From: Nemertoderma westbladi
Taxonomy: Eukaryota; Animalia; Xenacoelomorpha
NCBI GenBank assembly: GCA_032718475.1
Contig: JAUCBJ010003591.1
Coordinates: 1 to 34,943, forward strand
Reading direction: 5' to 3'
Length of the DNA stretch: 34,943 bases
The notes under the pieces are model-generated. The model worked only from the letters and a program-made list of their open reading frames with translations. It did not search any database and was not told where the DNA came from. Position 1 is the first letter of the stretch, and each line of letters starts with the position of its first letter. The position numbers and the translations under genes were made by a program. This document shows, in pieces, positions 234 to 32,578 of this stretch.

Positions 234-3012
234 TTAAACATAACTGTAGCTTATATTCTGCAGATTAGACTTTTCACTATATAAACCCCCACCGCACAAT
301 GTACGCTCAGGAAAAATAGTAACAGGTTCTAGTTTCAGTTTCGGGCTGTGCCTATTACCCGTGGTATTGGTGCCCCGTTTCCTATGCACTGTTTGTCGCG
401 GTGGCTTCACATGTAAATCACTACCCCCTTGGGTTTGGCGGCCATGAACGGTTTCCTTAGTAAAGAGTTTTCTCCAAGTCCTTAAGGTCTCTCTACTCCA
501 CAACCACACTGTGCAGGTGCACCCTGGTATAAGGGTCATAAAGGTCCGGAATAAATGAAACTGCAACAAAATAATTTTTGTTAATAATGAGTGTAAATAG
601 AGAACAAATTGCTTGAGAATAAATTCTACATTACTGTATTTTTGTTTGTTAGTCACGTGGAATCCAAACATTGAATCATATAAAAAAAATTCTTCTAGTT
701 TGTTTAATATAAACATTTCGGTTATTGAATAGTGATATTTTCGATCTTGGAGTTAATGTGCGTCCTTCCTTCCTTACAGGCAACTAAACAAAAAAAGTTA
801 TCATTGAAAGAATTTGGCTATGAGACTTAGGTTCTTACCTCATGGGGTATTTGGTCTTCACTCTCTGACACAAACTGATAGATGTAGCACACGAGGAGGC
901 TGCAAGATGGGATCATGTATAAAACACTGAATATGCCGATTCGTGCCATAAGTTGCTCGAATTCTACAATGCGTTTCCCGTTTCGTTTCAAAATTGTTCT
1001 AATTCTAAATACGGAAACAAATCCAGCAGTTAGTAAGGCAGTGCCGACAGAAAGTGATAAACTGAGCGGGATTATTAAAAAAAATAATAGATTATTCCGT
1101 GAGTGGACGATGAAACAGTTTCCTGCGAGAATATCACCATCGATGCGTTTACTCGCTAATGCGATAATGGTGCAAACACCTGGTACAGCCCAGCATACGG
1201 TGTGCAGATAGACACAGATCGAGTTGAGAGATTCTTTGGTCCACGAAGATGTCGATGAGAGAAACCAACACAGCGCGAGCGCAGCCCACCACATATGCGA
1301 CGCGAATCCGAAAAAAAAACCAACAATAAAATCCAACGTGCACGTGACCATGGAGTCCATCCCGCTGGATTGGAGAAGCGGTTTGTTTTCGTAGTCGACG
1401 CACGCGAGCCCGTTCGGTCCCGGAGTCAGCGCGGGGATCAGATAGGATGCCGAGTAGGCTGTATAGCAGATCGATATGAATACCACGGGTTTCTCTGGGT
1501 AGGGGAAGCTCGAATGGTTCAATGAGAACGTAATCACGGCTAGTAGACTAATTGCAAAGCATATCGCAGCCCAGATAAGGGTCCATACCGAAGCGAAGTT
1601 CCGTACTGATGGAGTGTAAGGCCAATCCTCCTGGCAAAGTGACACACAGACGTTAAGGCGGGATAGTAAGTGGTGGTGTGGGGCACACGGGGCTTGGGTG
1701 AGTGGATGGGTTTCCTCGTTACTGATTGGTTCCCCTCCGGTATAGGTTATTGGTTCGAGGTCGTTAGGTTGGATACACAATCCATTCGAGTTGCTAGGGA
1801 ATGTGGTGCAGTTGAATGGCCATGCAATACTATTTGCTACCATGATGGGTTCGCACGCTCCTTTTACCACCTGGAAAAAATACGCAAAACATAAGAATCA
1901 AACAATACTAGATCTGTACAATAGTAGTGGTTGTATGAAAAGTTAGTCACAATATAGTACGTCGAGTATATACTGGTCTAGGAGACCAGTATGTACTCGC
2001 CGTACTCGGACCAAATAAACAGAGACGCCCCCAAGTGAGAGTTTGGTTATGTAAAAAGTAAAATACAACCCTGGGCCGATGTTTTTCGATAGTACGAACA
2101 ACCCCATTCAAGAAATTAATTAAAATAATAAATCGACTTTGTGGAATAATACAATACCTACGGGGCCCACAACTTCCAAATTATTTTTAATTTATTGTTT
2201 GAAGTTCAGAATCGGTAGGAAATAGTTCGCATCACCATCAATGTTAGTTACAGGGATATGTCAAAATGTCATACTCCTGAATTTTGGACCAATGTAAGTC
2301 CCACACGGCTCACTATTAAATGTTAGATTAGATAGCTTACCAGGCAGAAATCCTTGCACGGGCCGATTTGTTGGTCGGCTTTGGGGTTACACATTGGTGC
2401 GTACAGCGAACACACGAACAAATTCAAGTGTTTATGGCAATTAACCGCAGTTAATGGGGCCCAATGCACTATTTGTGAGGCAGATTCAGCCTTCGAATTC
2501 TTTAGTATGGTGTTTGGGTACGACGTTAAATTATACCTAAAATCAATTGGGATAAGCATTTAAATTGTACCTAAAGTAAAATGGCGCCTGATTAAATTAT
2601 ACTTAAAATAAAAGGGTCTGAGGTTAAACAAAACATAAATTGCAGTTTATTTTATTATAGTATTTTTCTTATACGATCTAATTTTAAATTTGATGAATTA
2701 ATTAAATAATCTGAAAGCAAATTAATTTATACTAATTCAATGTTTTTCCTTTTACCATTTAAGCAAGAATCAAACACTGACAGGTATATGATAGGATAGG
2801 GTAGTAGCTAAGTACAATTATTAGTATACTATTAATCAATACTATAATATATAATTAGTATTAGTACATAATTACTATACTAACTCTACATCAAGGCATG
2901 TGCTTATTTCAATCGGCTCGCATTTAGAGTTGTGTTGTGTAACCATTGCCATGGTGAGAGCGATTTGGAACACCAAGATGAAACCGACGCAAATATTTCC
3001 AAATATTTCCAT
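234..3012 (-). CDS. fzd: Frizzled-family Wnt receptor, 4 exons (3012-2885, 2536-2341, 1870-839, 560-234), ~560 aa
   Basis: Manual splicing at GT-AG sites gives a continuous 1683-nt frame. It encodes a signal peptide (MEIFGNICVGFILVFQIALTMA), a CRD (CEPIEISTCLDVEYNLTSYPN...FVCSLYAPMC...PCKDFC...C), a 7TM region (FPYPEKPVVF, WWAALALCWF, DGDILAGNC, LMARIGIFSVLY), a WSRETLRTW tail motif and a C-terminal SYV. Subfamily not determined. Confidence 0.93.
1956..2006. repeat. 24-bp inverted repeat (hairpin) in frizzled intron 2
   Basis: agtacgtcgagtatatactggtct-agg-agaccagtatgtactcgccgtact; 2 mismatches, 3-nt loop. Confidence 0.8.
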
Positions 3013-5554: not shown

Positions 5555-8500
5555 ACGCTACGCCTACAGCTACGACTTCGCCTACACCTACGTCTACACC
5601 TACACCTACGCCTACACCTACACCTACACCTACACCTACACCTACACCTACACCTACACCTACACCTACACCTACACCTACACCTACACCTACACCTACA
5701 CCTACACCTACACCTACGCCTACACCTACGCATACGCCTACACCTACACCTACACCTACACCTACACCTACACCTACACCTACACCTCACCTACACCTAC
5801 ACCTACACCTACACCCTACACCTACACCTACACCTACACCTACCACCTACGCTACGCCTACACCTACACCTACACCTACACCCTACACCTACACCTACAC
5901 CTACACCTACACCTACACCTACACCTACACCTACACCTACACCTACACCTACACCTACACCTACACCTACACCTACACCTACACCTACACCTACACCTAC
6001 ACCTACACCTACACCTACACCTACACCTACACCTACACCTACACCTACACCTACACCTACACCTACACCTACACCTACACCTACACCTACACCTACACCT
6101 ACACCTACACCTACACCTACACCTACACCTACACCTACACCTACACCTACACCTACACCTACACCTACACCTACACCTACACCTACACCTACACCTACAC
6201 CTACACCTACACCTACACCTACACCTACACCTACACCTACACCTACACCTACACCTACACCTACACCTACACCTACACCTACACCTACACCTACACCTAC
6301 ACCTACACCTACACCTACACCTACACCTACACCTACACCTACACCTACACCTACACCTACACCTACACCTACACCTACACCTACACCTACACCTACACCT
6401 ACACCTACACCTACACCTACACCTACACCTACACCTACACCTACACCTACACCTACACCTACACCTACACCTACACCTACACCTACACCTACACCTACAC
6501 CTACACCTACACCTACACCTACACCTACACCTACACCTACACCTACACCTACACCTACACCTACACCTACACCTACACCTACACCTACACCTACACCTAC
6601 ACCTACACCTACACCTACACCTACACCTACACCTACACCTACACCTACACCTACACCTACACCTACACCTACACCTACACCTACACCTACACCTACACCT
6701 ACACCTACACCTACACCTACACCTACACCTACACCTACACCTACACCTACACCTACACCTACACCTACACCTACACCTACACCTACACCTACACCTACAC
6801 CTACACCTACACCTACACCTACACCTACACCTACACCTACACCTACACCTACTCACCTACACCTACACCTACACCTACACCTACACCTACACCTACACCT
6901 ACACCTACACCTACACATACACCTACACATACACATACACCTACACCTACACCTACACCTACACCTACACCTACACCTACACCCACACCCACACCCACAC
7001 CCACACCCACACCCACACCCACACCTACACCTACACCTACACCTACACCTACACCTACACCTACACCTACACCTACACCTACACCTACACCTACACCTAC
7101 ACCTACACCCACACCCACACCCACACCCACACCCACACCCACACCCACACCCACACCCACACCCACACCTACACCTACACCTACACCTACACCTACACTT
7201 ACTTCACCTACACCTACACCTACACCTACACCTACACCTACACCTACACCTAAACCTACACCTACACCTACACCTACACCTACACCTACACCTACACCTA
7301 CACCTACACCTACACCTACACCTACACCTACACCTACAACTACACCTACACCTACACCTACACCTACACCTACAACTACACCTACACCTACACCTACACC
7401 TACACCTACACCTACACCTACACCTACACCTACACCTACACCTACACCTACACCTACACCTACACTTACTTCACCTACACCTACACCTACACCTACACCT
7501 ACACCTAAACCTACACCTACACCTACACCTACACCTACACCTACACCTACACCTACACCTACACCTACACTTACTTCACCTACACTTACTTCACCTACAC
7601 CTACACCTACACCTACACCTACACCTACACATACACCTACACATACACCTACACATACACCTACACCTACACCTACACCTACACCTACACCCACACCCAC
7701 ACCCACACCCACACCCACACCCACACCCACACCTACACCTACACCTACACCTACACCTACACCTACACCTACACCTACACCTACACCTACACCTACACCT
7801 ACACCTACACCTACACCTACACCTACACCTACACCTACACCTACACCTACACCTACTCCTACTCCTACACCTACACCTACACCTACACCTACACCTACAC
7901 CTACACCTACACCTACACCTACACCTAAACCTACACCTAGACCTAGACCCACACCCACACCCACACCCACACCCACACCTACACCTACACCTACACCTAC
8001 ACCTACACCTACACCTACACCTACACCTACACCTACACCTACACCTACACCTACACCTACACCTACACCTACACCTACACCTACACCTACTCCTACTCCT
8101 ACACCTACACCTACACCTACACCTACACCTACACCTACACCTACACCTACACCTACACCTACACCTACACCTACACCTACACCTAAACCTACACCTAGAC
8201 CTAGACCTACACCTACACCTACACCTACACCTACACCTACACCTACACCTACACCTACACTTACTTCACCTACACCTACACCTACACCTACACCTACACC
8301 TACACCTACACCTACACCTACACCTACACCTACACCTACACCTACACCTACACCTACACCTACACCTACACCTACACCTACACCTACACCTACACCTACA
8401 CATACACCTACACCTACACCTACACCTACACCTACACCTACACCTACACCTACACCTACACCTACACCTACACCTACACCTACACCTACACCTACACCTA

Positions 8501-8697
8501 CACCTACACCTACACCTACACCTACACCTACACCTACACCTACACCTACACCTACATCTACACCTACACCTACACCTACACCTACACCTACACCTACACC
8601 TACACCTACACCTACACCTACACCTACACCTACACCTACACCTACACCTACACCTACACCTACACCTACACCTACACCTAGGCCTACGCCTACGCCT
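5555..8697. repeat. Hexamer microsatellite array 1, mainly (CCTACA)n
   Basis: ~3.1 kb of acacct with variants (acgcct, acaccc, acacat, aaacct, agacct, actcct, cacttacttcacc). Confidence 0.99.
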
Positions 8698-8876
8698 AAG
8701 GAAGTACTAAAGTTGCTAGGTGCTAAAGGTACTAAAGGAAGTACTAAAGAACGTACAAAAGGAAGTTTAGTACATATAAAAATAAAAGGAAATTTGGTAC
8801 ATAAGGAAGTTGGGTACATGAGGAAGTTTGGTACATAAGGAAGTTTGGTACATAAGGAAGTTTGGTACAAAAGGAA
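8698..8876. repeat. Satellite spacer copy 1, left part (18-bp aggaagtttggtacata subrepeats); continues at 20661-20728 after the LTR element
   Basis: Near-identical to 21962-22190; rejoining across the AGGAA TSD restores the sequence seen in copy 2. Confidence 0.92.
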
Positions 8877-10487
8877 TGTTGCCGTTATCCCAACACCAGG
8901 GGGGAAAAACGCCGATGCTGGAGACGTGACTTTACAGACCACTGAGCCCCGGCCAGTCACCGGATATTGATTTTGGAGAAGGAATGATTTCTGAGATGCA
9001 GGGTTGCGGTTGAGAAAAAGCTGCATTAGTTGGATATACTCTTTAATGTAACTGAACTCTGTTGAACCTTGTCAACAATATTGAACCCTGATTAAGAATA
9101 ATTTTGGGCTTCCCCAAATCAATATACACCAAATATTCACAATAATTATACACGATAATATAAATCCCTACGGTATATTATTTAATTACCCACTGTTCGC
9201 TCAGAATTTTAGCCTACCTAATGTTCCCCAGATTTTCCCTCGGTCCCAGTCTTAGTGCCGTAGTGTCGGTGTCGGTCGACCCTGTCGCGTGTCCGTTCCA
9301 CCCCTCACGAACCCCGAAGGGAACGATCATCGAGAACCAGCACGGCTTGGCTAAGGATCGGTCCAGTCGGTAGACTCTGTCGCGTATCCGTACCACCCCT
9401 CTCGAACCCCGAAGGGTTCGGTCATCGAGAACCAGTACGGCTTGGCTAGGAGTCTGTCGTGTCGGTGGACCCGTTCGCGTGTCCGTTCCACCCCTCACGA
9501 ACCCCGAAGGGTTCGATCATCGAGAACCAGAACGGCTTGGCTAAGGGTCCGTCAGTTCATCACAGAAACCCAACCACCTAGGCTTTCCGAGTCCGTTTCA
9601 GGCTCGTAGTCGCTTCGGCAGCCGAGAAACTGCTCCGAACAGTCGGTAGGCCAGTAGAGTCTAGTCGAGTCTAGTCCTTTGTCTTTCGACCCCATCGCGT
9701 GTCCGTTCCACCCCTCACGAACCCCGAAGGGAACGATCATCGAGAACCAGTACGGCTTGGCTAAGGGGTCTGTCGTCGGTTCCCGTCGCAAATCCCAGTA
9801 CAAGCAGTCAGCGTTCCGAGTTCTTTTCAGTCTCGTAGTAGCTGCCGTTGACCAGAGACCGCTAAGGGCAGTTCTCGTCAAACCCGTCCTGTGGCCAGCC
9901 CTTTCGCATGTCCTGTCCCACCCCTCACGAACCCCGAAGGGATCGGTCATCGAGAACCAGTACGGCTTAGGTCAGGGGGCAGTCGTTAGTTGGCCACCCG
10001 TTCGCGTGTCCGCTCCACCCCTCACGAACCCCAAAGGGAACGATCATCGAGAACCAGAACGGCTTGGCTACTAAGGGGCCGTCGGTGCCCGTCGCAAATC
10101 CCTGACACAAGCAGTCAGCGGTCCGAGTTCTTTTCAGTCTCGTAATGGCTGCTGTTGGCCAGGGACTAAGCGGTCAGTCCTTGTCCTTTAGGCCTGGCGC
10201 ATTACCAAATCCACCCCTACAGGCAGCAGGAAGTTGGCCAGGGCCTAATAGTACTCAGGCTAACCTGAATACTGCTTGCATTTTCCATCCCCCCCTGGCC
10301 CTTATAACTATGAAATTATTCCCGTACCCTGTAAGTTGCCCCAAAGTTCGCCCATAAATCGCCCCCAGTTTATTGAATGTGCCCAAAACCCATGGTCCCG
10401 CACCCAGTAGTAATATCGGAATAATCAATTTTAAATAAATACAAAAATATTCAACTCGCGTTATGGAAAGTTGAAATACCGCGAACA
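8877..10487 (-). repeat. 3' LTR (1611 bp)
   Basis: Matches 19050-20660 with roughly a dozen differences counted by eye; minus strand begins TGTTCGCGG and ends CGGCAACA. Confidence 0.96.
9278..10082 (-). ncRNA. Array of six ~70-95-nt structured repeats in the LTR (K-turn + C(UUCG)G hairpin); same array at ~19451-20254
   Basis: Conserved cores start at ~9285, 9380, 9475, 9695, 9904 and 10002; compensatory changes in outer and middle stems. The repeat is certain; its RNA function is inferred. Confidence 0.6.
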
Positions 10488-10496
10488 GTCCCCCCC
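10488..10496 (-). other. Polypurine tract
   Basis: Minus strand GGGGGGGAC immediately precedes the TGTT start of the 3' LTR. Confidence 0.8.
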
Positions 10497-10652
10497 AATG
10501 ACCTTCGTGAAGTCTGTCGGTCGATTGAGTTTGCGTAGGTCATTCCCAATATAAAAAACCCAAATTTAATATTGCATAGTTTTTAATTAATTTGGCCTAG
10601 AGTTTGTATAAAAATAAATGTTCGATAAATGTTCCTGGAATATCCCGATCCA

Positions 10653-13253
10653 CTATTTCTTTCTCTGATACGCCTTTCGTCTCTTCGCCCGTCGACTCTC
10701 ATCGATCGCTATGGCTGGTAGAGGAGCGTCAACATCCATCGTGAGTAACGCTTCGGCTTGTCTCCTGGCGGCTCTTCCTTTCGAAGGCATCGGGATCATG
10801 TCGGTTCGTCTCTCCAACTCAGATTTGCGTGCCTCTAGGAACCATTCTCCATCACCGAACTCCTCTTTATACGAGTATAATCGTCTAATGACTTCAAATG
10901 GACCGAATAATCCGGCGCTCAGTAGCAGATCCACGTAATGGAAGGGTAGCGTGGCCGACGTGTGGAGGCGTTCCGGGAAGGAGAAATATCCGCACGCCAT
11001 CTCCTGCGCGATATTCCGAGCGTTTCTCCGAACCTTGGTCTTTAAATGGCTGTTTGCGTATGTTTCAAACATGACCATATTGCCCATAGCGGTAACGTCT
11101 TTGGTTGGACATTTGATATAGCAGCGGGGGCTAGAGGAATGTCCACGGAAACCGCACGTGGTGCAGAGGTTATAAAGGATCGGGCAGACGGAAACGTCGT
11201 GGCCCGATGTCGCGCAGTATGGGCAATAGAGTATCCCGAGGAGCTGGAGGCAAGAATCGGTAACCCGATTCCTTCTGCCGCGTGGGCACTGCTCCGAGCC
11301 GCAGTCGCCGCATACCTCCAACTGCATCTCTCGACCGGGGAATATCGGAATCGGGACGCCGACGTAGTATTCGAGTCGTCGGTCGCTCTTCGGAATATTC
11401 TCGGTGGTCGGTAGCCCGCGGAATGCTAGGCTTTTGCGTAATAGGTTCTCGCTCCGATAACCTTCTTTGTGTCCCGCTGGTCTCAACTCGGATGACCGTT
11501 TCTGGCGGTGGATCCATTCAGTTTGCTCGGCGTACCAACGGGTTAGTCGCATAGGGTCCTGAGGAACGGCGGGTGTAGTAGCCACCGCTGGTCGGCGAAG
11601 AGGTGCCGGAGTTTTAGACGGAGGGATACCAAGGAGATCGTCGGGGGTCGGCGCATCGCTGGGGCCCTCCTCGACCAGTATCGCTGAGCGGGTCCGTTGA
11701 TGGCTGGTACTCGGAATCTCCGACGACCAATCTTCGCCACCCGGGAAAGGATACGGGGATAACCGTTGGCATATGTCGCCGAAGTCGCTCAATGCAGCTG
11801 TAGTAGCTACCTCCCTCGCGGGGCTACCGGAGCCGCGTGGGGTGTAAATGCCTGCTCTCTTCATCGGTTCGGCCGAGGCAACCCGTTTGGCGGCCGGTCC
11901 ATACGCGGCCTCCGGCTCGAGTTGTCGCTTCGGGGTGGAGAGTAGAACACCCTCGTTTAGCCATATCTCTTCTCCTTCCGAAGAGATCAGAGGCTCCTCC
12001 GCACCGAGAAGTTCGGTAATCGTAGGGATGTCGTAAGGTCCGCTCTCGTCCCAGGAATCGATAACGGAGGGCGTTTTCGATTCTCCCGGTGTAATGTTCT
12101 CGACCGCTTTAAACGCGTGGTTTATAACCTCATTCCAGTCGTAGTCGACGAAGGAAAGGGGGACCGCCGTAATAAGGTTATCGAGAGTTCTACAGATAAA
12201 CTTAGCGACGGTGTAGCACTCCATAACAATGTAAACGTAGTTCCGTCGATCGGGATTCTCCCACCTTTGGTGTATCGTCCATTTCCGATCAACGTCCTTC
12301 CATCGACCCTCTCGCTCGCTCTTTATTTCTAATCCCGGGTATCCACCGTATATTTTATTATAGTCCCGGAATTTCTGGGGTTTGAAGTCGATACCGCCGT
12401 TGAGCACAGCGAGGTAGCCGATCCCGGATTTCGTCGGTCTCACCTCTTGGAATCCTCGCATGAACTCGGCGAATCGTAACCAGGCTAGTAGCGTTTGAGT
12501 GTCGATGCAATGGCTAAGGGCGTTGAGGTCGTCTCGTCGGTTTCTTCCTGCAGGAGCGTTCGCGTAGTCGTTCCGGACGTCCGCCTTGATATCCGACCCG
12601 ATTTTAATGACGTCGAAGTCGAAGAGGATCTTTTGGATTTCCGGAGGCAGCAACCAGATCGCTCCGGCTGCCTGCACTTCCTGTCTGGGTGTCGGGAATA
12701 TTCGGCACACCAGTACCAAACCGTCCAGGGTTCCGAGGACGACGACTAAGGATCGACTGTATTCTTTCGCCCCGTACTTTTCCTGGTAGTCGTCTCGGTT
12801 CTGGATAATCGATATGCGTTCCTCGGGAAGCGTCGCCGTACATTCCGACAGGTTTCCCCAGTGGGTGAGGTACGTACTCTTGTCGTCGACGAAACTTTGA
12901 CATCTCTCCAACGTAATCGCTTTCGAGGTGGGCGTCGCGTTTCCCTCGTTGTCGTAGATCAAACATCGGGATATGTAGACGCTCTGCCGGAACGTTTCCC
13001 AAAACGACGAATCGTCCCCTCCGGTTGCCTTTGCGTTCCGAGTTCTTTTCAGTCTCGTACTAGCATCAGCTAACCGGAGGGCTCGTAGATTCTTAGAATC
13101 CGGTCCCTCTCGCCCGGTGAATTTAATGACTCGCACGTTCTCATTTAGCAGGGTGCTCCAATTTGTATCAAAGTCAGGGGATCCGGGTTGCGAATATTCC
13201 AGTAGATCTATCGTGTTACGTAATTCGCCGATAATTTGGCGATTTGGGTCCAT
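10653..13253 (-). CDS. 866-aa accessory protein: DEDDy-like (WRN/EXD2/RNase D-type) 3'-5' exonuclease domain, low-complexity linker, CCHC-like zinc knuckles
   Basis: ExoI-like IYDNEG; ExoII-like ILFDFDVIKIGSDIKAD; CIDTQ; SGIGYLA; ExoIII-like YVYIVME; C-terminal CGDC, CPYCATSGHDVSVC, CTTCGFRGHSSSPRC; intact ORF. Confidence 0.75.
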   Translation of the reverse strand: MDPNRQIIGELRNTIDLLEYSQPGSPDFDTNWSTLLNENVRVIKFTGREGPDSKNLRALRLADASTRLKRTRNAKATGGDDSSFWETFRQSVYISRCLIYDNEGNATPTSKAITLERCQSFVDDKSTYLTHWGNLSECTATLPEERISIIQNRDDYQEKYGAKEYSRSLVVVLGTLDGLVLVCRIFPTPRQEVQAAGAIWLLPPEIQKILFDFDVIKIGSDIKADVRNDYANAPAGRNRRDDLNALSHCIDTQTLLAWLRFAEFMRGFQEVRPTKSGIGYLAVLNGGIDFKPQKFRDYNKIYGGYPGLEIKSEREGRWKDVDRKWTIHQRWENPDRRNYVYIVMECYTVAKFICRTLDNLITAVPLSFVDYDWNEVINHAFKAVENITPGESKTPSVIDSWDESGPYDIPTITELLGAEEPLISSEGEEIWLNEGVLLSTPKRQLEPEAAYGPAAKRVASAEPMKRAGIYTPRGSGSPAREVATTAALSDFGDICQRLSPYPFPGGEDWSSEIPSTSHQRTRSAILVEEGPSDAPTPDDLLGIPPSKTPAPLRRPAVATTPAVPQDPMRLTRWYAEQTEWIHRQKRSSELRPAGHKEGYRSENLLRKSLAFRGLPTTENIPKSDRRLEYYVGVPIPIFPGREMQLEVCGDCGSEQCPRGRRNRVTDSCLQLLGILYCPYCATSGHDVSVCPILYNLCTTCGFRGHSSSPRCYIKCPTKDVTAMGNMVMFETYANSHLKTKVRRNARNIAQEMACGYFSFPERLHTSATLPFHYVDLLLSAGLFGPFEVIRRLYSYKEEFGDGEWFLEARKSELERRTDMIPMPSKGRAARRQAEALLTMDVDAPLPAIAIDESRRAKRRKAYQRKK

Positions 13254-13719
13254 ATTTACGATTATATCCGTTACAAATTAGATCGGTTAATTATAAGTCC
13301 AGAAAGTCTGAAACTATAGCGATAGCAGAATAATTCAGTTTTTTATTTAATTCAGTTTATTAATAACATTGCTATATAGGCATCTATCATCTTATTGCTA
13401 ATACATTCAGCATTTACAGTTACTATAGCTATACATTAATATCCAACCAGTTTTTTATGACTTTTTTGTCCTTTTCTTTTTTCTAATTCTTTTCTTTAGA
13501 CTTTTTTATACCTTTTTTTTTGTCTTTTTTCATTTCATTATTATTTCATCTCATTTCATTTATTTCCACATATATTTTAACATTTAGTTCCACCATTTAT
13601 TTCACATTTATTTATTTATTTCCACATCATCATTGGGTTTATAGCCCCCCGGCTATCATCATTGTTATAAGCGCAGCACCAGGGTGCGCATCATTACATT
13701 TTCATCAGCATACGCGTCA

Positions 13720-16700
13720 TCATTCAGGTTTACTTTTACCGAGTTGTTTTGGGCTGGCGCCTTGGCTTGATAAGTCCGCTGGGTTTTCCTTCCCGTTCAC
13801 GTGATGCCACTGTTCTCGGCCGGTACACTGTTTAATCTCCGTGGCTCGGTTTGCAACAAACGTGGTGTGACGCCGTGATGGAGAGTGGAGATAATAGAGA
13901 ACTATACTCGAATCTACCCAGAAGTGTTGAGATTCTATGGGGATCCGTAGATTCCGCATGACCATGCGATTCTGTCTTACTGCCCAAACTGCAGCTTGTA
14001 GCTCGAGTCTCGGGATCGTTGCTACGAATTCCCCGGATACTGTCTTTGCTTTGGAGAATAAGAAGCTTGTATCGCCGTTTCCATCGTTACTTAGTCTCCG
14101 TAGGAAGGTGACTACGCCGATTCCGGTATTCGAAGCATCCGAAAAGGTGTGGAGCTGGAAGATATCGGTGGGCAATTTATCGAGGAAGAACGGTCTAGGT
14201 ATCCGCATAAGATGTAGGTGTTCGAGCTGCTCCGTCCATTTTCTCCATTTGACGCTGAGGTATGGGGGGAGCTCTTCGTCCCATCCCAGTCCTTCTATCC
14301 ACATTTCCTTAATCAGGTTCATTCCGGCCAAGGTTACTGGGGATATGAAATTTAGTGGGTCGAAGATGGCGCTTTTTATCGACAAACATCCCCTTTTTGT
14401 CATAGGCTTGGGTAGGGGTTTATACTTGAAGATGAATTCGTCTGATTCTATGTCCCATTCAATCCCAAGTACACGATGTTCCACATCCTCCGAATACATT
14501 TTGTTATTTTCCAGCCGGATGTCCTCCGGAAACTTTTCCATAAGTGTTTTGTCGTGGGATCTGAACTTCACGAGCGGAAACCCTCCTTTCTTTAGACATT
14601 CTACCATCCCCATTGCTAGCCGATATGCCTCATCCACATTATCCGCGCCGGCGCATCCGTCGTCCACATAGAAGCATCGTCGAATGGTTTCTATGACGGT
14701 TGGAGGGAACTCGTTTTCGCACATAGTTGCTGTCCTCTTTAGCATGTCACTGCATGCTACCGGCGAGTCCTTAGCGCCGAAGATCCTGACGACCATACGC
14801 ATTACGTCTACGTCCTTTATCGTGAGTTGGCTAATCTCCTGTTGAGTAAGCGTTTTATCCATCCATAGGATACGTAGACAGTCCGAGTCTCTTGGTAACG
14901 TACGAACTTGATGAAACATGGCCTTGATGTCACAGGTGAATGCTACCCGGTTTTCCCTGAACCTGATCAATACGCCAATGAGTGTGCTATATATGTTGGG
15001 TCCCGTGTAAAGTTGACTGTTTAGGGATTCGCCCTGGTACATAGCGGCAGCATCATTTACCACTCGGATTTTCCCACCTTTGCGGGCTTCTACTACATAG
15101 TGGGTTGGGAGATAATATGTTCTTTCACCACCTTGCAGTTCATTCCGTGGTACCATTTCTGCTAATCCATCATCGAGATATCCTTGGATTACGGTATTAT
15201 ATTTCTCCTTTATTTCGGGTTGGTCATTCAGCCGGCGTAGAATCCCTTTAAGTCGCCTAAGTGCCATGCTGGCGTTGTTTGCCATTGGTTTGTTTGGATC
15301 CTTCCATAACATAGGTGAACACCAATGTCCGTCTTTAAACGTGGCCTGGTCGAGAACGTCCATACAATATTGGTCCTCTTCGGATGGGTTTTCGTCCTTT
15401 TCCGCGAACTCCTGGGTCTCCAAATTAAAATATTTCGTCATCTCTCGTTGGGTTTTCTCGGTTTCCAGAAACAAATCCTCGTCCAGATCTGAAGCTGAGC
15501 AATAACCCACAGAGGTTACATTCTCTTTAATCTGACATTTAGGAAGGTAGGTATAGGTATCCGTAGTTTCCTCCTTAATGCCGCAGAGTGTCCATCCCAT
15601 TATTGTTCGTTCAGCATAAAATCCATCATCCTGGTTTATAGATCGAGCGATATCTCCGGTGGGGATGTGTAGTTCCGGTGTATCAAGTCCAATCAGTAGG
15701 GTGATACGGTTCACGTCCAACTGCGGACACCTCAGGTCTACATCGTCTCGGTCTAATTGTATGAGGGGGGCATACTCGGCTGATTGTCGGAACCGCACCC
15801 GGAGGTCTGTGTGTACCAAGGCGTTCTTGATGGTTAACTTAGCCGTTTCGTAGCCCTTCATCACTCCTTCCATCTGGAGTTGTACCTCCCCGGACTCTAC
15901 CTCTCTGTTATCGGTGATGGTTTGTATGGGCCGTTTACAAGGTTCATATTCTAGGCCGAGTTGCTCGAGGAAATCCCGGTCGATGATGGTTCCGTCAGAC
16001 CCGTTATCGAGGAACGCGAGTGTCGTCAGAGATTTGCCGACTCCTTGGATCCTTGCTGGGATTACCTTTGCGAAAACCATGTAGCGGCGATTTATAAGAT
16101 TAATCGTGGCCGAAATATTGGTTACTTGTGGTGTATCGGTGGAGATCTTAAACGGGTTGGTTTCTCTCCGTTGGGTTGTCCGGGTTCCTTTGAAGATGTG
16201 GTTTGTTTCTCCTCTTCGCCTGGCTTCGATCCGAAAGGGGAGGGTAGTAAAATCGAAGTTCGCGGGGATGTGGAGGAGCGTGTGATGGCGTTGGTCGTTA
16301 CAGACAGCACAGCATGATCTTTGGTCGCACTCCCGAACATAGTGACCTGTTCCAAGACACCGGAAGCATCCTCGGTATTTCATTATCGCCTCGAAGCGTG
16401 AGACGAGTTCGGCGAACTGAAACTTTCTGCAGAATTCCACTTTATGTTTCTCCCCACAGAAGAGACAGAGCAGGGAATTTGTGATGCCTTCCCTTTCGGG
16501 TGCCCAACTCGCGAGATAACATGCCCATTCCTCGGCGGATGTCGGTTCCTCGTAGTCTTCGTCGTCGGAATCCTCGGCCATGGTGATGGCCATCGTACTC
16601 ACCGGTGGGGGGCGGAATCTCGGTTTCGGAGGGGTTATCTTACTCCTGGAGTTGCTTTCTATTCCGTCCAACTTTGCAAGACTTTGTTTTGAAAACATCG

Positions 16701-17331
16701 AGTCATTCATGGCTTCGGAGATATCGTCCAGGAATGCCGACATTTCAAGGAAGCTAGGATCTCGATCTGGATGTCTGCGCCGGAGATCTACACATTTATA
16801 AGCCCACTTACTTTGTAGCCATCCGGTGAACTTCCGGGCGATCTGTCGGAGGTTTAGAATGTTGTTCACCTGGTCTTCCTTATTTAAGGGTTTCAGAGTA
16901 TAGTAGGTATCCTTCATAGAGTCGGAGAATTCCTGTATGTTCTGTGGGTCCCCTAGTGATCCCGCGTCCTGTATCAGTCTCTCTAGAGTTTTATTAATTA
17001 TAGTTCCGGTATTTCCGTATCTTTTATCTAGAGTTTTCCATGCGTCATAGTATGCCTCATGAGAACCTCCTTCAAAACATGCAATAATTCTGCGTGGTTT
17101 GTCACCCAGGTATTGCGATAAATATACCAATTTCTGTGCGTCGGCTATGTCTGTTGATCCGATCTGCGCAAAGAACCGTTTCTTGAATCTGAGGTAATCG
17201 ACGGGATCTCCTTCGAAGGTGCGAATCTCCATCTTAGGCATGGCAAGGCGGTTCTCCAACGCCCGGATGATGCTGACGTCGTCTGAACTAGAGTGACTCG
17301 GAGGGTTATAGTTATTGGCACTCACTCCCAT
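13720..17331 (-). CDS. Bel/Pao Gag(core)-protease-RT-RNase H polyprotein, ending before integrase
   Basis: DUF1759-like PKMEIRTFEGDPVDYLRF; triple knuckle CLFCGEKH..C / CFRCLGTGH..C / CAVCNDQRHHTLLH; protease FLDNGSD; RT KIRVVNDAA, CDIKAMFHQV, FGAKDSP, YVDD; RNase H FSDAS, TIPRLELQAA, VDSSIVL, ENPADL. Confidence 0.96.
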   Translation of the reverse strand: MGVSANNYNPPSHSSSDDVSIIRALENRLAMPKMEIRTFEGDPVDYLRFKKRFFAQIGSTDIADAQKLVYLSQYLGDKPRRIIACFEGGSHEAYYDAWKTLDKRYGNTGTIINKTLERLIQDAGSLGDPQNIQEFSDSMKDTYYTLKPLNKEDQVNNILNLRQIARKFTGWLQSKWAYKCVDLRRRHPDRDPSFLEMSAFLDDISEAMNDSMFSKQSLAKLDGIESNSRSKITPPKPRFRPPPVSTMAITMAEDSDDEDYEEPTSAEEWACYLASWAPEREGITNSLLCLFCGEKHKVEFCRKFQFAELVSRFEAIMKYRGCFRCLGTGHYVRECDQRSCCAVCNDQRHHTLLHIPANFDFTTLPFRIEARRRGETNHIFKGTRTTQRRETNPFKISTDTPQVTNISATINLINRRYMVFAKVIPARIQGVGKSLTTLAFLDNGSDGTIIDRDFLEQLGLEYEPCKRPIQTITDNREVESGEVQLQMEGVMKGYETAKLTIKNALVHTDLRVRFRQSAEYAPLIQLDRDDVDLRCPQLDVNRITLLIGLDTPELHIPTGDIARSINQDDGFYAERTIMGWTLCGIKEETTDTYTYLPKCQIKENVTSVGYCSASDLDEDLFLETEKTQREMTKYFNLETQEFAEKDENPSEEDQYCMDVLDQATFKDGHWCSPMLWKDPNKPMANNASMALRRLKGILRRLNDQPEIKEKYNTVIQGYLDDGLAEMVPRNELQGGERTYYLPTHYVVEARKGGKIRVVNDAAAMYQGESLNSQLYTGPNIYSTLIGVLIRFRENRVAFTCDIKAMFHQVRTLPRDSDCLRILWMDKTLTQQEISQLTIKDVDVMRMVVRIFGAKDSPVACSDMLKRTATMCENEFPPTVIETIRRCFYVDDGCAGADNVDEAYRLAMGMVECLKKGGFPLVKFRSHDKTLMEKFPEDIRLENNKMYSEDVEHRVLGIEWDIESDEFIFKYKPLPKPMTKRGCLSIKSAIFDPLNFISPVTLAGMNLIKEMWIEGLGWDEELPPYLSVKWRKWTEQLEHLHLMRIPRPFFLDKLPTDIFQLHTFSDASNTGIGVVTFLRRLSNDGNGDTSFLFSKAKTVSGEFVATIPRLELQAAVWAVRQNRMVMRNLRIPIESQHFWVDSSIVLYYLHSPSRRHTTFVANRATEIKQCTGREQWHHVNGKENPADLSSQGASPKQLGKSKPE

Positions 17332-18611
17332 ACTTGATGGATCAATAATAGGTGGAGTTTTAATAATGACGCGGTACGAGTTTGTGGTGTGGATGTAAAT
17401 GGGTTGTTAGATCGGGGAGTGGCGTCCCGTTCCGAGTCCCTTTCAGGCTCGTACTTGGGTACACTCGCTGTCGTGGTGTTGGATGGGAAATAAGGTTCCT
17501 CATTCTTTAGCGTAGCCGGTGGGGGATGGAACACCGGTGCTTGTGCCGATAACGTAGACTGTTTGGTAGGCGGGATCTCGGGTTTCGGAAGTTTCGCCGC
17601 TGTTGGTGTAAATGACTTCTCTAATTCCGGTACCGGGATTGGCTCATATTCCTGATCTATATCCCTTTCCCAGTCCTCGTATAGTTGAATATCTCGTTCT
17701 ATAAGCGCGGCTTCGTATTCCGCAAGTTTCGCAATATCTGCATTCTTTTTGTGAGTGAGAATCGCTTGGGCCTCGGCGTGTTGTTTACACATTTCTGCTT
17801 CCCATTTACGTTGTTCGATCTCTTGTTTGGCCTCTCGTTCACGTTGTTCGATCTCTCGTTTGGCCTCTTGTTCACGTTGTTCGATCTCTCGTTTGGCCTC
17901 TTGTTCACGTTGTTCGATCTCCTGTCTGACCTCCTGTCTGCGTCGTTCGACCTCTTGTTCGGCCTCTCGCTTTTGTGTTTCGGCGGCTAATACATCTTGC
18001 TCGGTTTGCAGTTGAATATACTCATCTTCCATCCGAGCTTTGAGGGCTAATGCCTTCCGTTCTCGCAGTTGGTCTCGGAGTGGCTGACCCCCTTGAGAGC
18101 TATGCGCTGAGCCGGATCTCTCGCTCCTAGCGCTGGAGTGCTGATTTCTAGCGGACCCCGTTCTTTTTCGATGTACTGCCGTCCTGATGCTGGAGGATCG
18201 TACTGATTCCGCGTCTGTTCTTTCAGCCCTCTTGTAGTACTGTTCCTCATAGCCTCTCACAAGGCTGAGGGTCCTCCGGTGTTGTTTGCGGAACCCATCT
18301 AGATGTACAACGTGTTCTTCCAACTTGGGGTAGTTTTCCTGATCGGTGGAGGGAACGAGATCTTGGTACGCCTGTATCATTCTTTCGTACCGCTGTAGGA
18401 TATTTCGGATACTTTGAAGCTGAGTTTGTACCTCATTGAGGGGGGTTTTGACTCCCTTGAGTTGTTTCTCCATCCGTTGAAACGCTCGGGTTACTCCGCC
18501 TTTGAGAGCCCCTAGCCGACGGGTCATGTTCTTGACGTTTGGTACCTCGTCGGCTTCCGAGTCTGTGTGGTGATCCATCTCGTCGGTATCGGATACGTTA
18601 TTTGTCGTCAT
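17322..18611 (-). CDS. Gag N-terminal coiled-coil region (429 aa), out of frame with the downstream gag-pol
   Basis: Position, charged helical composition and EIEQREQEAKR repeats; the downstream (-1) frame is open from ~17408, so the frames overlap. Confidence 0.8.
   Translation of the reverse strand: MTTNNVSDTDEMDHHTDSEADEVPNVKNMTRRLGALKGGVTRAFQRMEKQLKGVKTPLNEVQTQLQSIRNILQRYERMIQAYQDLVPSTDQENYPKLEEHVVHLDGFRKQHRRTLSLVRGYEEQYYKRAERTDAESVRSSSIRTAVHRKRTGSARNQHSSARSERSGSAHSSQGGQPLRDQLRERKALALKARMEDEYIQLQTEQDVLAAETQKREAEQEVERRRQEVRQEIEQREQEAKREIEQREQEAKREIEQREREAKQEIEQRKWEAEMCKQHAEAQAILTHKKNADIAKLAEYEAALIERDIQLYEDWERDIDQEYEPIPVPELEKSFTPTAAKLPKPEIPPTKQSTLSAQAPVFHPPPATLKNEEPYFPSNTTTASVPKYEPERDSERDATPRSNNPFTSTPQTRTASLLKLHLLLIHQVWE
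17806..17970. repeat. 33-bp coding tandem repeat in gag
   Basis: ttcacgttgttcgatctctcgtttggcctcttg repeated ~4-5 times. Confidence 0.9.
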
Positions 18612-18799
18612 TGTAACGCCTCGTCGATAGCTAGATACGCGATGTCATAAAACAGTTCCTCGTAGGTATTGTACTCAGCTTGGACCACCCGAACGGTAAT
18701 CCTGAATCGTCCGACGTTCGTTCCTTGTACTTCAACTTCGACGTGCCAGATTCCTGGCTCAACTTGGATTATATCAATGGGTGTGATCGATACTTCCAT
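18608..18799 (-). CDS. Small 63-aa upstream ORF whose stop overlaps the gag start (ATGA)
   Basis: ATG start, protein-like composition, TGA at 18610-18608 overlapping ATG at 18611-18609. Confidence 0.4.
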   Translation of the reverse strand: MEVSITPIDIIQVEPGIWHVEVEVQGTNVGRFRITVRVVQAEYNTYEELFYDIAYLAIDEALQ

Positions 18800-19034
18800 T
18801 CCCTGTTAACAACTCTCCAAATATGTGATCTGCCGACTACGAGTTGGTTAGATCGAGTTTGTTGATTAATTAAACCATGACTTTGTCTCAACTCAAATAC
18901 CAGAGTTTCCTCGTAGTGGGTGCTGGCAAGCACGTAGAGAGTTTTGAAGAGTATTGAAGGATTCTCAACTTCCACCAGTTGAAGTTGACCGTAATTATTC
19001 TTAATTTTGACACCCTGTCAAAATTAACCGCATG

Positions 19035-19047
19035 AATTATTCTTAAT
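19035..19047 (-). other. Candidate primer-binding site (self-priming type), ATTAAGAATAATT
   Basis: Lies 2 nt inside the 5' LTR end; no TGG tRNA-type PBS; exact complement lies in the LTR at 19264-19276. Confidence 0.55.
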
Positions 19048-19049
19048 TT

Positions 19050-20660
19050 TGTTGCCGTTATCCCAACACCAGGGGGGAAAAACGCCGATGCTGGAGACGT
19101 GACTTTACAGACCACTGAGCCCCGGCCAGTCACCGGATATTGATTTTGGAGAAGGAATGATTTCTGAGATGCAGGGTTGCGGTTGAGAAAAAGCTGCATT
19201 AGTTGGATATACTCTTTAATGTAACTGAACTCTGTTGAACCTTGTCAACAATATTGAACCCTGATTAAGAATAATTTTGGGCTTCCCCAAATCAATATAC
19301 ACCAAATATTCACAATAATTATACACGATAATATAAATCCCTACGGTATATTATTTAATTACCCACTGTTCGCTCAGAATTTTAGCCTACCTAATGTTCC
19401 CCAGATTTTCCCTCGGTCCCAGTCTTAGTGCCGTAGTGCCGGTGTCGGTCGACCCTGTCGCGTGTCCGTTCCACCCCTCACGAACCCCGAAGGGAACGAT
19501 CATCGAGAACCAGCACGGCTTGGCTAAGGGTCGGTCCAGTCGGTAGACTCTGTCGCGTATCCGTACCACCCCTCTCGAACCCCGAAGGGTTCGGTCATCG
19601 AGAACCAGTACGGCTTGGCTAGGAGTCTGTCGTGTCGGTGGACCCATTCGCGTGTCCGTTCCACCCCTCACGAACCCCGAAGGGTTCGATCATCGAGAAC
19701 CAGAACGGCTTGGCTAAGGGTCCGTCAGTTCATCACAGAAACCCAACCACCTAGGCTTTCCGAGTCCATTTCAGGCTCGTAGTCGCTTCGGCAGCCGAGA
19801 AACTGCTCCGAACAGTCGGTAGGCCAGTAGAGTCTAGTCGAGTCTAGTCCTTTGTCTTTCGACCCCATCGCGTGTCCGTTCCACCCCTCACGAACCCCGA
19901 AGGGAACGATCATCGAGAACCAGTACGGCTTGGCTAAGGGGTCTGTCGTCGGTTCCCGTCGCAAATCCCAATACAAGCAGTCAGCGTTCCGAGTTCTTTT
20001 CAGTCTCGTAGTAGCTGCCGTTGACCAGAGACCGCTAAGGGCAGTTCTCGTCAAACCCGTCCTGTGGCCAGCCCTTTCGCATGTCCGTCCCACCCCTCAC
20101 GAACCCCGAAGGGATCGGTCATCGAGAACCAGTACGGCTTAGGTCAGGGGGCAGTCGTTAGTTGGCCACCCGTTCGCGTGTCCGCTCCACCCCTCACGAA
20201 CCCCGAAGGGAACGATCATCGAGAACCAGAACGGCTTGGCTACTAAGGGGCCGTCAGTGCCCGTCGCAAATCCCTGACACAAGTAGTCAGCGGTCCGAGT
20301 TCTTTTCAGTCTCGTATTGGCTGCTGTTGGCCAGGGACTGCTAAGGGCAGTCCTTGTCCTTTAGGCCTGGCGCATTACCAAATCCACCCCTACAGGCAGC
20401 AGGAAGTTGGCCAGGGCCTAATAGTACTCAGGCTAACCTGAATACTGCTTGCATTTTCCATCCCCCCCTGGCCCTTATAACTATGAAATTATTCCCGTAC
20501 CCTGTAAGTTGCCCCAAAGTTCGCCCATAAATCGCCCCCAGTTTATTGAATGTGCCCAAAACCCATGGTCCCGCACCCAGTAGTAATATCGGAATAATCA
20601 ATTTTAAATAAATACAAAAATATTCAACTCGCGTTATGGAAAGTTGAAATACCGCGAACA
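19050..20660 (-). repeat. 5' LTR (1611 bp)
   Basis: Direct repeat of 8877-10487; followed by AGGAA TSD. Confidence 0.96.
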
Positions 20661-20728
20661 AGGAAGTTTGGTACATATAAAAATTAAAGGAAATTTGGTA
20701 CAAAATGGAGTTTAGTACATATAAAAAT

Positions 20729-21961
<1,233 letters not shown>

Positions 21962-25804: not shown

Positions 25805-25858
25805 ATAAAAATTAAAGGAAATTTGGTACAAAATGGAGTTTAGTACATATAAAAATAC

Positions 25859-26134
<276 letters not shown>

Positions 26135-29047: not shown

Positions 29048-32000
29048 TCATCCCAATTGTCGTGCTCCTGTGGTCGCTTCCGCCAACTCTTCCTTTTGCA
29101 ATTGCACGCGCGCCTTCTCCGACGCACCCTGCGCCTTGCGCTGCAATCGCTGAGCCTCTATAATAGAATGATAGTGGTCGTCCTTGACTTGACGCTTGTC
29201 TTGGACCTCTCCTCCTGGTTCCTTCCGTGAGCCTTGAGCTCCAACGGTCATCGTTGTGGGCGCTGCGGTTCGCTGTTCCTCGATTCTCTTGGCGGTCAAT
29301 GACCCCACCGGTACGTGAGTCAACAAAAACTCGTTGCGGTATTGTATAGCCGCCATCCTCCAATCTCCTCGCGCGCGCACCACTTTTCTAGTTTCCGAAA
29401 ACAAACCTTTCGTAATACGGTCGCAAATAGCAACAAAGTTCCAAGTGTATTTATTATCCATATTCAATTGTCTGAAGTATTCCCGAACCACGATGACTCC
29501 AGTGTTCTGTGGAAGGTCTTGAGCGGTTAGGATGAGCTCTTGATATAGTGGTAACGACTGTAGATATGGCTCATTCGCAACGTGTGATGGGTCTACCGCC
29601 CAAAATCCATATCCCGCCTTAAATGGTAACCAACGCATCTGCGCTTGAATGTGGTAGTCAGCCACACCCTCCCACTTATCTAGCATCTCCTGAAGTAGGT
29701 TAGCGCTATGGTTTTGGAAGGAATCGTCTCGCAGTTGGCATCTCGCGCTACGATGTCCATTTATTCCACAATATCCACATTGAGAAATGAATACGGTGCA
29801 CGTATGAAACGAATGGTCGGTCTCACTGCACCAACGGCAGACCTTATGCGCCGCCTCCACTACCGCGTCGCACGATTTTTGATTGTGCCTTGTGCTGCCG
29901 CACAACTTGCACCTACGCGCTTGTGGAAACCAAGCCCTCTCGTATATGAGGTCTCCAATCGGTTTCGCACTTCCTTCTTTCCCAATGTCTAATACGATGT
30001 CGTCCTCTCCGGTCAGCGGTTGTCGATCCGGAACAAAGTAAACATCCTCGCCCTTGTCCTCTATCTCCAATATTTCCTCCCGCGTTCGTTTCGGATATGT
30101 CTTCTCCACCGGAAGATCTACTCCAAACACCTCTACTAACATCTCCGGCCAACCCTCTCTAACAGGTCTATCAGCCTCCAAGTGGAAGGGAGTACCAAAC
30201 CCGCGGGTTTGATTCCAGAACCACTTCTCCAAAGCCTCTGGCGTCGGATACTCCATCGACGGTCGGTCTCCCAAATCTCCGATATTCTGTCGATATATCC
30301 CTTCGAATATCGCTAATCCTCTCCTAACCATCGACGTATTCTCTAACTATTGGTTGAAGAACGGGGTTAAGAAACGCTTCATCACGTCGGATTGGATTCC
30401 CCCTTTCGAGCGAACGTATTGATCTCCTCCGAACACCAATGGATGACGCTTCAAAACTCGCGCAACGATATCCACTAACAAACAAGTTACCGTGTTCGAC
30501 TCAAGCACCAAATAATATTGTAGTGACGCACGGGGTTGCGCGCAAATGTTCCAATACACTAACGCTTGCCGCTTGAAGTGGGATTTGAACTCCGCTCCTG
30601 GTGGCGTGTTATATTCACCATACGCCTCCTCGTATTTCTTCTGCGTCTTCAACTTGAAGTCCCAATTATACAACAAATGTGCTATGAAGCCCATACCAGT
30701 CTTGGCAGAGTTGGGATACTCCCTATAAATTCCAATGTCTTGTGCCCATAGCAACAATAGCTTGGTGTCGACAAACGGCCTCGGCAATCTATCTTCCAAA
30801 TCAGTCATGGCGTTAAAGTCACTCTCCAAATCACTCTGGACTCCCGATCCCACCTTGACGTAATCTTGGTTGAGAATAGCCTCTCTAACCTTCTTGGGTA
30901 ACATCCTGGCGTCGATACGCTCTGCTCCGTCCATACCTCCTCGCCTGCATACCTCCAAAATCTGTTCCCTAGGATCCTTTCCCTTCCGATATTGTGTCGT
31001 TATTATGGGCTCTGGTCTCTCTCGATCCACCCTTACGCGCATAAACACATGAGTCACACCATCGGCCGCGCGAATTTGAATGCATTTGCTAGTCAAGCAT
31101 TCCTGATGAGACTCTCCTTCATTGTCGTAGAACATCACTCTCCAATCCTGTAGTGATTCCTCCGTTTTCCTCCACTGACGCTGAATCTCGTCTGATGGGG
31201 TCCACATGCGCTCGATAGCCTTGTGGTCGTCATATCGGGTGTAAGAACCCTTCCTCCTCAGCCACGCCTGGTCTACCTCCTCGTCGTCTGGGAACGTAGC
31301 CACCGCGACCCATACCTTGATGTACTTATCCAACCATCCGAATAACTTACTCTCCTTCCCCGGAGCTCCAATCTTATCCAGTGTGTTATAATCCGTGATC
31401 TGCATCGGGACATCACGCAAGAACTTCGCGCATAAAACTTCCCGTAGACAGTCGACATTCCAATAGTCCGACATCCTCACCATCGGCAAGAATCTAATCG
31501 CTTCTCGCGACTCCGGGTGATCTACCAATATCGCAGGTTCGTTGCCATCGGAATAATACACCGGTCGGGGTTGAGATACGGCCTGTGGAACAAATCCGGT
31601 CACTCTCCTCGTCTCCTCCTGATGTCTATCCGCGGTCTTATTATATTCCGCTACCCGCGCTTCGAATAACTGTTTTGCCTTCGCTGCTCGCTCCTCCTGC
31701 CGCAACGCGTCTATGTCGTCCTGATGCTCAGGCGTGAGGTTTCTCGCTCGATGAGGCGAAGTAAACGTTGTCCAGGGACTCGAGAGCTCCAAACCCGCGG
31801 GTTTGGTACCCGAGTCCCGTGCCTCTTCGCGCCGTGCCTCTAGGTCCTTGTAGGCTCGGTACAGCGAAATGGCCGCTGCCGTCTCTATCAAACTAGGTGT
31901 CGAACAGGGTTTAATCTCCGTATATGGATCTAATGTCGTAACGGTCGGCGTAATGGGTCTTGGAGGTCGCTTTCCACTGAAGTCGATACTGATCATCGGG

Positions 32001-32578
32001 TTGTTCATTGGGTAACCTCCCTCGTTGTATCTAAGGAATTGGTGAGCTTGACATCGCGTTAATATTGGTTCAGGATGTTGCTTGTCCAATCGGTCGGGAA
32101 TCGCCATGTCTTTTTTGTTCATGCATTCACCACATTTATAGAACAACTTGTATACACTGAAGACCTTCGGAGTCTCTTGATCCTCACCTCGAGTCCTCCG
32201 GTACAGATGCATTCCGTCGAACTGATCTCGGACTGCAGGTAGAGGTTCGTCGTGTCGTAAATACATGTTCATATGGTACAGCCACGCAATCTCCTCGTCC
32301 TGATCTGCACTAATGTCACATACGTCTAACGCAAAATCGTAGGGATACCGAGTGCGATACTCCTTCCGCAAAACTTCCATATGGTCCCCCAACACTCTCA
32401 TTCTTTCCCTCCTTAATTCCTTATCATACGCGGGTTTATACTTTCCATTTAGCTCCATTACCGACCTTCCATGGTAGTAGACATTCGAATCTTTACATCC
32501 CAGTCGGGCAAATGGTAGTTCCGCCTCCTCTCTAGCAGTAAATCCTCTCCGCGGTTGCGCTCTAATTTCCTTCTCCAT
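29048..32578 (-). CDS. Second exonuclease/zinc-knuckle gene (homolog of 10653-13253), split by one in-frame TAG at 30349-30347
   Basis: ORFs 30347..32611 and 29048..30331 are in the same frame. Motifs: FYDNEG, ILNQDYVKVGSGVQSD, FVDTK, TGMGFIA, YYLVLE, CKLCGSTRHNQKSC, CRWCSETDHSFHTC, CGYCGINGHRSARC. First ATG at 32578. Confidence 0.75.

Follow-up and report, generated by a model that had tools for sequence, protein, structure and literature searches.

Retroelements with an exonuclease-like third gene are known from bdelloid rotifers. There, the long terminal repeat (LTR) elements Juno and Vesta, as well as Athena/Terminons, carry third open reading frames (ORF3s) of the DEDDy class with a DEED tetrad, whose activity is undemonstrated (Rodriguez, Kenefick and Arkhipova, PMC5408684); PMC6338049, PMC5718144 and PMC6431247 repeat this account. 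As for Bel/Pao elements, their third genes are named as envelope (env)-like only, both in the profile issued by the ICTV, the international body for virus taxonomy (PMC8742986) and in the accessible parts of PMC3118150, PMC9094657 and PMC554778. The DNA analysed here is a stretch of 34,943 nucleotides from Nemertoderma westbladi (contig JAUCBJ010003591.1, hereafter the window), which contains a Bel/Pao-type LTR element whose third gene, also called ORF3, probably represents a distinct family of D-E-D-E exonuclease-like proteins with zinc knuckles. The reading favoured in this work, with a probability of about 0.38, is that ORF3 encodes an accessory 3'-5' exonuclease of DnaQ/DEDDy fold, equipped with nucleocapsid-like knuckles, that would blunt host small-RNA silencing.

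This gene resembles the ORF3s of Juno and Vesta in several respects: it is a third ORF of its own, on the same strand and in the place of env, between pol and the 3' LTR; its DEDDy-like domain shows a D-to-E change within the acidic tetrad; and it has neither a membrane anchor nor demonstrated activity. However, its tetrad is D-E-D-E instead of DEED, it has nucleocapsid-like knuckles and a long linker, and its host element is of the Bel/Pao type. Juno and Vesta belong to other, Ty3/Gypsy-like lineages. The LTR-gag-pol-third gene-polypurine tract-LTR layout, DUF1759, Peptidase_A17 and the YVDD motif are shared with Belpaoviridae that possess env, such as Tas, Cer13 and Atlas (PMC8742986, PMC9094657), but the third gene is here a predicted nuclease and not a fusion glycoprotein. 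Also unlike described Belpaoviridae, the LTRs, with a hairpin array in them, measure 1.6 kb (0.2-1.2 kb in described members), and the window copy reaches 11.8 kb even though it lacks an integrase (4.2-10 kb in described members).

A preliminary description of this locus overstated the novelty of a DEDDy ORF in the env position, since rotifer LTR elements of lineages other than Bel/Pao had already been published with one (PMC5408684). A literature search covering few subscription papers found no Bel/Pao element for which an exonuclease gene had been reported, and the main texts of PMC3118150, PMC9094657, PMC535339 and PMC2774666 do not contain the word exonuclease. The published rotifer gene arrangement is extended to a new element family, Bel/Pao. 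Some nematode Cer elements were reportedly described by Malik, Henikoff and Eickbush in 2000 as carrying an exonuclease-like domain; if so, the novelty of ORF3 falls further.

The ORF3 protein and its exonuclease-like domain

ORF3 can be read from ATG to stop over 866 amino acids with neither internal stops nor introns (10653-13253, minus strand). It lies between the pol ORF and the purine tract that adjoins the 3' LTR, its stop being 165 bp from that LTR, so that the intact reading frame announced in the preliminary description is borne out. The five motifs listed there, YDNEG, KIGSDIKAD, IDTQ, GIGYLA and YIVME, are all present and start at residues 100, 217, 250, 277 and 341, respectively. 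They are beyond chance, because they are common to a second ORF of the window (E 3e-11) and to three proteins of a library of 1.84 billion. The latter (P0001-P0003; E 1.5e-6 to 3.9e-4), all of them ENA singletons, were the only ones retrieved in an exhaustive search with residues 1-390, and P0001 shares the whole architecture of ORF3: exonuclease-like domain, linker and knuckles. Word-index protein searches gave no match to the full ORF3 among 7992 candidates, none among 7997 longer candidates and only P0002 among 3841, and the pattern matches in metagenome contigs (156) and viral contigs (16) included zero confirmed relatives.

The homologue in the window is 24% identical to ORF3 and matches both of its domains (E 3e-11 and 5e-7). 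Cysteine motifs of the C-terminal domain start at residues 648 (CX2CX4C), 677 (CX2CX4HX4C) and 697 (CX2CX4HX5C), and the profile of this domain matches retroviral nucleocapsid knuckles (E 4.6e-6), in agreement with the CCHC-like knuckles of the preliminary description. Such knuckles would be out of place in a divergent envelope or membrane protein, an interpretation that the env position of the gene and one hydrophobic 19-mer (residues 168-186, mean hydropathy 2.08) might otherwise invite. In a hydropathy scan, ORF3 showed neither a hydrophobic N-terminal signal nor a C-terminal anchor, and in the alignments the 19-mer falls on the beta2-beta3 hairpin of the exonuclease fold. An envelope function is extremely improbable.

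The N-terminal domain very probably adopts a very divergent DnaQ/DEDDy fold, as judged from profile comparisons and structural models. When a profile of four homologues was compared by hhalign with ten bacterial RNase D/PolA exonuclease domains, the probability was 93.6% (E 2.2e-7) over 144 columns that include all three Exo motifs; with ORF3 as the first row, the same target gave 80.3% (E 1.4e-5, 95 columns), the best of 30 column-shuffled control profiles reaching 1.1%. ESM Atlas assigned ORF3 and the second window homologue to PF01612 clusters with scores of 0.92 and 0.91, where the first score names the family on 34% of cluster members and ranks behind three unnamed clusters, and the second was obtained with a named-only filter. 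In VIA-align, the top 30 of 48,161 chains were DnaQ-fold nucleases or polymerases carrying that domain (Z 3.1-4.5), including two titles that we take to be of this fold; the matches include Exd1 and Egalitarian. The top 7 rows of Foldseek were WRN/EXD2. None of these tests is decisive singly and all of them agree. ORF3 is similar to the cellular proteins WRN, EXD2, Nibbler/MUT-7, RNase D and Rrp6 (PF01612) in predicted fold, in the ExoI-II-III order and in the ExoIII tyrosine; unlike them, to which it is 10-19% identical in the structural alignments, it lacks a direct sequence match and has Glu in ExoIII, and about 60 extra residues follow its candidate ExoI. An HRDC domain was not found in ORF3 by Pfam.

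In the putative active site, D225 takes the position that the Asp of ExoII has in the reference exonuclease profile, and ExoIII corresponds to Y341-x3-E345, in which the Tyr is kept and the Asp is replaced by Glu. This replacement, already pointed out in the preliminary description, is found in four of the five family members; P0002 has Asp, and the Tyr is invariant. Although the five sequences are only 21-25% identical, both ExoII and ExoIII have an acidic residue in each of them. The ExoI D-x-E is plain in P0001-P0003, and the best candidate in ORF3 is D101-N-E103, within the YDNEG motif that is identical in both window homologues and whose score is equalled by 2 of 500 shuffles. An active two-metal site formed by D101, E103, D225 and E345, with Y341, is somewhat favoured, and catalysis by ORF3 is plausible.

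A number of results count against an exonuclease, and they concern both fold and catalysis. ORF3 itself gave no significant exonuclease match against Pfam, NCBIfam or PDB sequences, and the PDB sequences yielded zero matches whether ORF3 or the domain profile was the query. With the two window copies alone, hhalign probabilities were just 0.6% and 10%; no VIA-align Z reached 5, and no Foldseek match had an E of 0.001 or better. Structure models were poor, with a mean predicted local distance difference test (pLDDT) score of 35 for the single-sequence model, which is uninformative, and of 43 for the five-sequence model, in which model residues 111-210 reach 51-69. The Glu in ExoIII breaks the Y-x3-D rule, so that ORF3 is DEDDy-like by sequence and not a strict member of the class. 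Moreover, the candidate ExoI precedes strand 2 by about 60 residues and belongs to a part of the model with pLDDT values of 24-35, the aligners place RDDYQE, without D-x-E, in the ExoI column of ORF3, and a hidden Markov model of the strand 1-3 region placed ExoI in neither window copy. The proposal of a DEDDy-like exonuclease thus stands as far as the fold is concerned (hhalign, ESM Atlas and, from a low-confidence model that does not place ExoI, VIA-align), and its ExoI is a tentative assignment.

These features could be expected of a catalytically dead or weak pseudo-nuclease acting as an RNA-binding adaptor or decoy, in the manner of EXD1, Maelstrom or Egalitarian. The displaced or missing ExoI, the Glu of ExoIII and the structural matches to Exd1 and Egalitarian fit this idea, and inactive DEDD derivatives are known in the Piwi-interacting RNA (piRNA) pathway (PMC5408684). 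The persistence of the acidic residues and of the ExoIII Tyr in five such distant sequences, together with the identity of YDNEG in both window homologues, argues in the opposite direction, and we regard a pseudo-nuclease as rather unlikely.

Copies of ORF3, selection and the host element

ORF3 is a multi-copy gene and a family part of the element. It is present, at no less than half of the sampled words, in four DNA runs from three studies (one run being possibly the source sample). In the contigs of three DNA studies, the coverage of ORF3 is as continuous as that of gag and pol; one contig links ORF3 to the spacer (12553-13660), and another runs from the end of ORF3 into the LTR (10460-10745). 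Its location inside the LTRs and its multiple copies agree with the transposon-borne gene proposed initially.

The gene is under purifying selection. Among the differences listed in ORF3 (n = 53, that is, 40 of 182 plus 13 further ones from 40 of 548 listed single-letter differences), 33 leave the protein unchanged, 19 are non-synonymous and 1 creates a stop, whereas 24-30% would be expected to be synonymous. This excess (p 2e-9 to 1e-6) corresponds to a ratio of non-synonymous to synonymous differences (pN/pS) of 0.19-0.26, a proxy drawn from an unphased, best-supported subset and not a formal dN/dS. None of the 53 differences falls in codons 101, 103, 225, 341 or 345, and the region 12100-13260 has a single indel site among those listed, totalling 3 bases.

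These data largely refute the notion that ORF3 is a neutral passenger, either a captured host gene or a nested insert, which is very unlikely. In its favour, the second window homologue has no pol or LTR beside it within the window. Nevertheless, the strong synonymous excess, the coverage and bridging contigs just described, the lack of introns and the hairpin that ORF3 has in common with the LTRs (see below) are all contrary to it.

The element spans positions 8877-20660 on the minus strand (11,784 bp; Table 1). Its LTRs, each of 1611 bp, differ at 9 of 1608 aligned positions (99% identical), begin and end with TG...CA and are flanked by a 5-bp target duplication, AGGAA; near-identical LTRs, such ends and a target duplication indicate a recent insertion. 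The long ORF matches DUF1759 (E 3e-14), Peptidase_A17 (E 5e-38), aspartyl protease and zf-CCHC in a Pfam-type family search. Bel/Pao Gag and Pol domains are thus present, in the order protease, reverse transcriptase and RNase H, and the YVDD reverse transcriptase motif can be read in the translation. At the frame break between gag and the next ORF, the window and the contigs of three runs are of unequal length (position 17374).

No integrase family matched the pol ORF, which stops about 20 codons past the ENPAD motif of RNase H. The window copy is therefore a defective member of a Bel/Pao-type family, a point overlooked when the locus was first assigned, correctly in its domains, to Bel/Pao. 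Contigs from two studies diverge from the window sequence at 13728 and 13732; other copies would then have extra sequence there, and we infer a deletion in the window copy. Going by the Bel/Pao gene order, the missing part would be the integrase. A second G6 purine tract lies in a small hairpin just past the end of pol (13640-13660, minus strand) and is possibly a relic or a central polypurine tract. As for the primer-binding site, which in Bel/Pao has 18 nucleotides, follows the 5' LTR and is specific for tRNA-Arg or tRNA-Gly, there is no TGG right after the 5' LTR; a candidate beginning with TGG lies about 70 nucleotides inside. This candidate (18960-19049) sits behind a short duplication, where contigs of two runs skip 44-48 bases.

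Table 1. Positions, strand and basis of the features annotated in the window
Feature	Position	Strand	Basis or remark
5' LTR, 1611 bp, TG...CA	19050..20660	-	aligned to the other LTR
N-terminal gag ORF, 429 amino acids	17322..18611	-	frame break separates gag from the next ORF in the window copy
gag-protease-reverse transcriptase-RNase H ORF, Bel/Pao type, 1203 amino acids	13720..17331	-	domain matches; ends without integrase
A-rich spacer with splice-acceptor-like TTTCAG (13313-13308), about 55 nucleotides before the ORF3 ATG	13254..13719	-	sequence only; putative splicing
ORF3, 866 amino acids: exonuclease-like domain, low-complexity linker, zinc-knuckle domain	10653..13253	-	ORF list, alignments, profiles
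Hairpin within the ORF3 coding sequence, 31 of 32 nucleotides the same as a short hairpin in each LTR	13033..13064	-	alignment
DnaQ/DEDDy-like domain (predicted), residues 85-370; candidate catalytic D101, E103, D225, Y341, E345	12144..13001	-	profile, structure matches, alignment
C-terminal domain, nucleocapsid-like CCHC knuckles and conserved downstream segment, residues 621-806	10836..11393	-	alignment with two homologues; profile
Polypurine tract (G7), adjoins 3' LTR	10488..10496	-	sequence
3' LTR, 1611 bp, inner end 10487	8877..10487	-	LTR alignment
Hairpin array of the LTR: six long units capped by UUCG/UUUG, plus three short hairpins; also present in the 5' LTR (19440-20340)	9265..10170	-	folding, sequence
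Second, divergent ORF3 homologue outside the element: ORFs of 743 and 427 amino acids in one frame, single TAG between	29048..32578	-	sequence comparison

The LTR hairpins and the surroundings of the element

Each LTR contains an array of hairpins. Five of the long units gave folding z-scores from -3.2 to +0.3, and covariation across the six units was found in 1 of 23 pairs. Rfam gave no match to the array; its only row, RsmY (E 0.94), lies inside pol and was taken as chance. The consensus of the kink-turn (K-turn), which consists of a canonical (C) stem, a 3-nucleotide bulge, tandem G-A pairs and a non-canonical (NC) stem, was matched in all six units. There are 8 such matches in the LTR, compared with a mean of 1.2 in 200 shuffles, the six units being duplicates of one unit. 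In energy, the K-turn register is less favourable than the predicted minimum by 3.6-6.6 kcal/mol, and the folding energy model contains no K-turn term. Short LTR hairpins fit kink-loop (K-loop) or GAAA-tetraloop forms, their register being ambiguous; K-loops in the LTR were no more numerous than expected by chance (33 of 200 shuffles reach their count). Metagenome contigs gave 0 matches to the unit pattern, and no report of K-turns in LTRs was present among the literature matches listed.

ORF3 and the LTRs share an element-specific motif, the short hairpin listed in Table 1, and the region around it in ORF3 (13010-13090) has a folding z-score of -5.65. This sharing is a single hint, at the sequence level, of a possible partnership between the protein and the array. 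A related LTR hairpin recurs in the gag coding sequence (17427-17473). It is conceivable, if quite improbable, that protein and array form a two-part module, in which a knuckle-guided D-E-D-E exonuclease would degrade unprotected 3' ends, those of small RNAs or of their precursors, while the LTR hairpin array would shield the element RNA or be trimmed to a stable decoy resembling a small nucleolar RNA. In such a module the K-turn-like array would be bound by a host protein of the L7Ae family or by the ORF3 protein itself, and the hairpin inside ORF3 might serve autoregulation or packaging.

The element is inserted in a 17-bp minisatellite beside long hexamer arrays (CTACAC, TACGCC) at 5558-8698, 20728-21962 and 25856-26133. 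A remnant of a long interspersed nuclear element (endonuclease 22480-23814, reverse transcriptase 24246-24965) is found between two such arrays, and a 338-amino-acid ORF at 827-1843 (minus strand) contains a Frizzled-family membrane region. With its roughly 1175 codons, the second ORF3 homologue might be what is left of a different element, or else a gene read through its stop. Its different N-terminal region, of 470 residues, belongs to no known family and holds a C-x2-C motif. Four copies of a 16-bp palindrome (28696, 30196, 31790 and 32894; two perfect, two with 1-2 changes) are spaced 1.1-1.6 kb apart across this locus, two of them within coding sequence.

Possible roles of the ORF3 protein

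According to the anti-silencing reading, the ORF3 protein would bind single-stranded RNA, the exonuclease would trim RNA 3' ends, and this trimming, with small RNAs or their precursors as the target, would blunt host small-RNA silencing. The weak parts of this reading are the expression of ORF3 from a spliced subgenomic RNA, the choice of RNA as substrate and the idea that small RNAs, or the precursors of these, are the target. Since the protein would act in trans, even a copy without integrase could supply it. Two considerations favour this role: this enzyme class is found again and again in retroelements with different modes of replication, and its cellular relatives take part in small-RNA pathways. 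For instance, MUT-7/Nibbler are DEDDy RNases of such pathways (PMC11347159). The recurrence of DEDDy genes in mechanistically unrelated retroelements (LTR elements and the Penelope-like Terminons) would fit a benefit that is independent of the replication route. Some facts do not sit easily with it. In the rotifers, the type of ORF3 could not be tied unambiguously to transcription or copy number, and small RNAs still cover the ORF3s (PMC5408684); in the present element, the one stop among the 53 differences occurs in an 81%-identical contig.

Alternatively, an active exonuclease might serve the replication of the element itself, a role already proposed for the rotifer ORFs (PMC5408684). The knuckles would then bind genomic RNA, and the nuclease would trim the 3' end of the element RNA or primer or edit complementary DNA ends in the particle. 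The resemblance of the knuckles to retroviral nucleocapsid, the LTR hairpin common to the ORF3 coding sequence, with a related one in gag, and the fact that the DNA-acting WRN, Pol I exonuclease and diDNase rank as high as RNases among the structural matches are in keeping with this. However, ORF3 is a separate frame and so would not be packaged within Gag-Pol. In addition, the earliest rotifer branches lack ORF3 (PMC5408684) and a third gene has been described for few Bel/Pao elements (PMC3118150), which implies that no core step needs one. A replication role is rather unlikely; both it and the pseudo-nuclease are close rivals of the anti-silencing reading, whereas a neutral passenger and an env protein are unlikely.

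The capture of a DEDDy gene as third gene has been published for rotifer retroelements. A separate, very divergent family of nucleases with knuckles in a recent, multi-copy element of the Bel/Pao type would show this kind of capture to have happened repeatedly, in different retroelement families. ORF3 is an intact, selected gene and, as such, suited to expression and assay. Should it act against small-RNA silencing, it would be an uncommon case of a transposon-encoded enzyme directed against the piRNA or small interfering RNA defence of animals.

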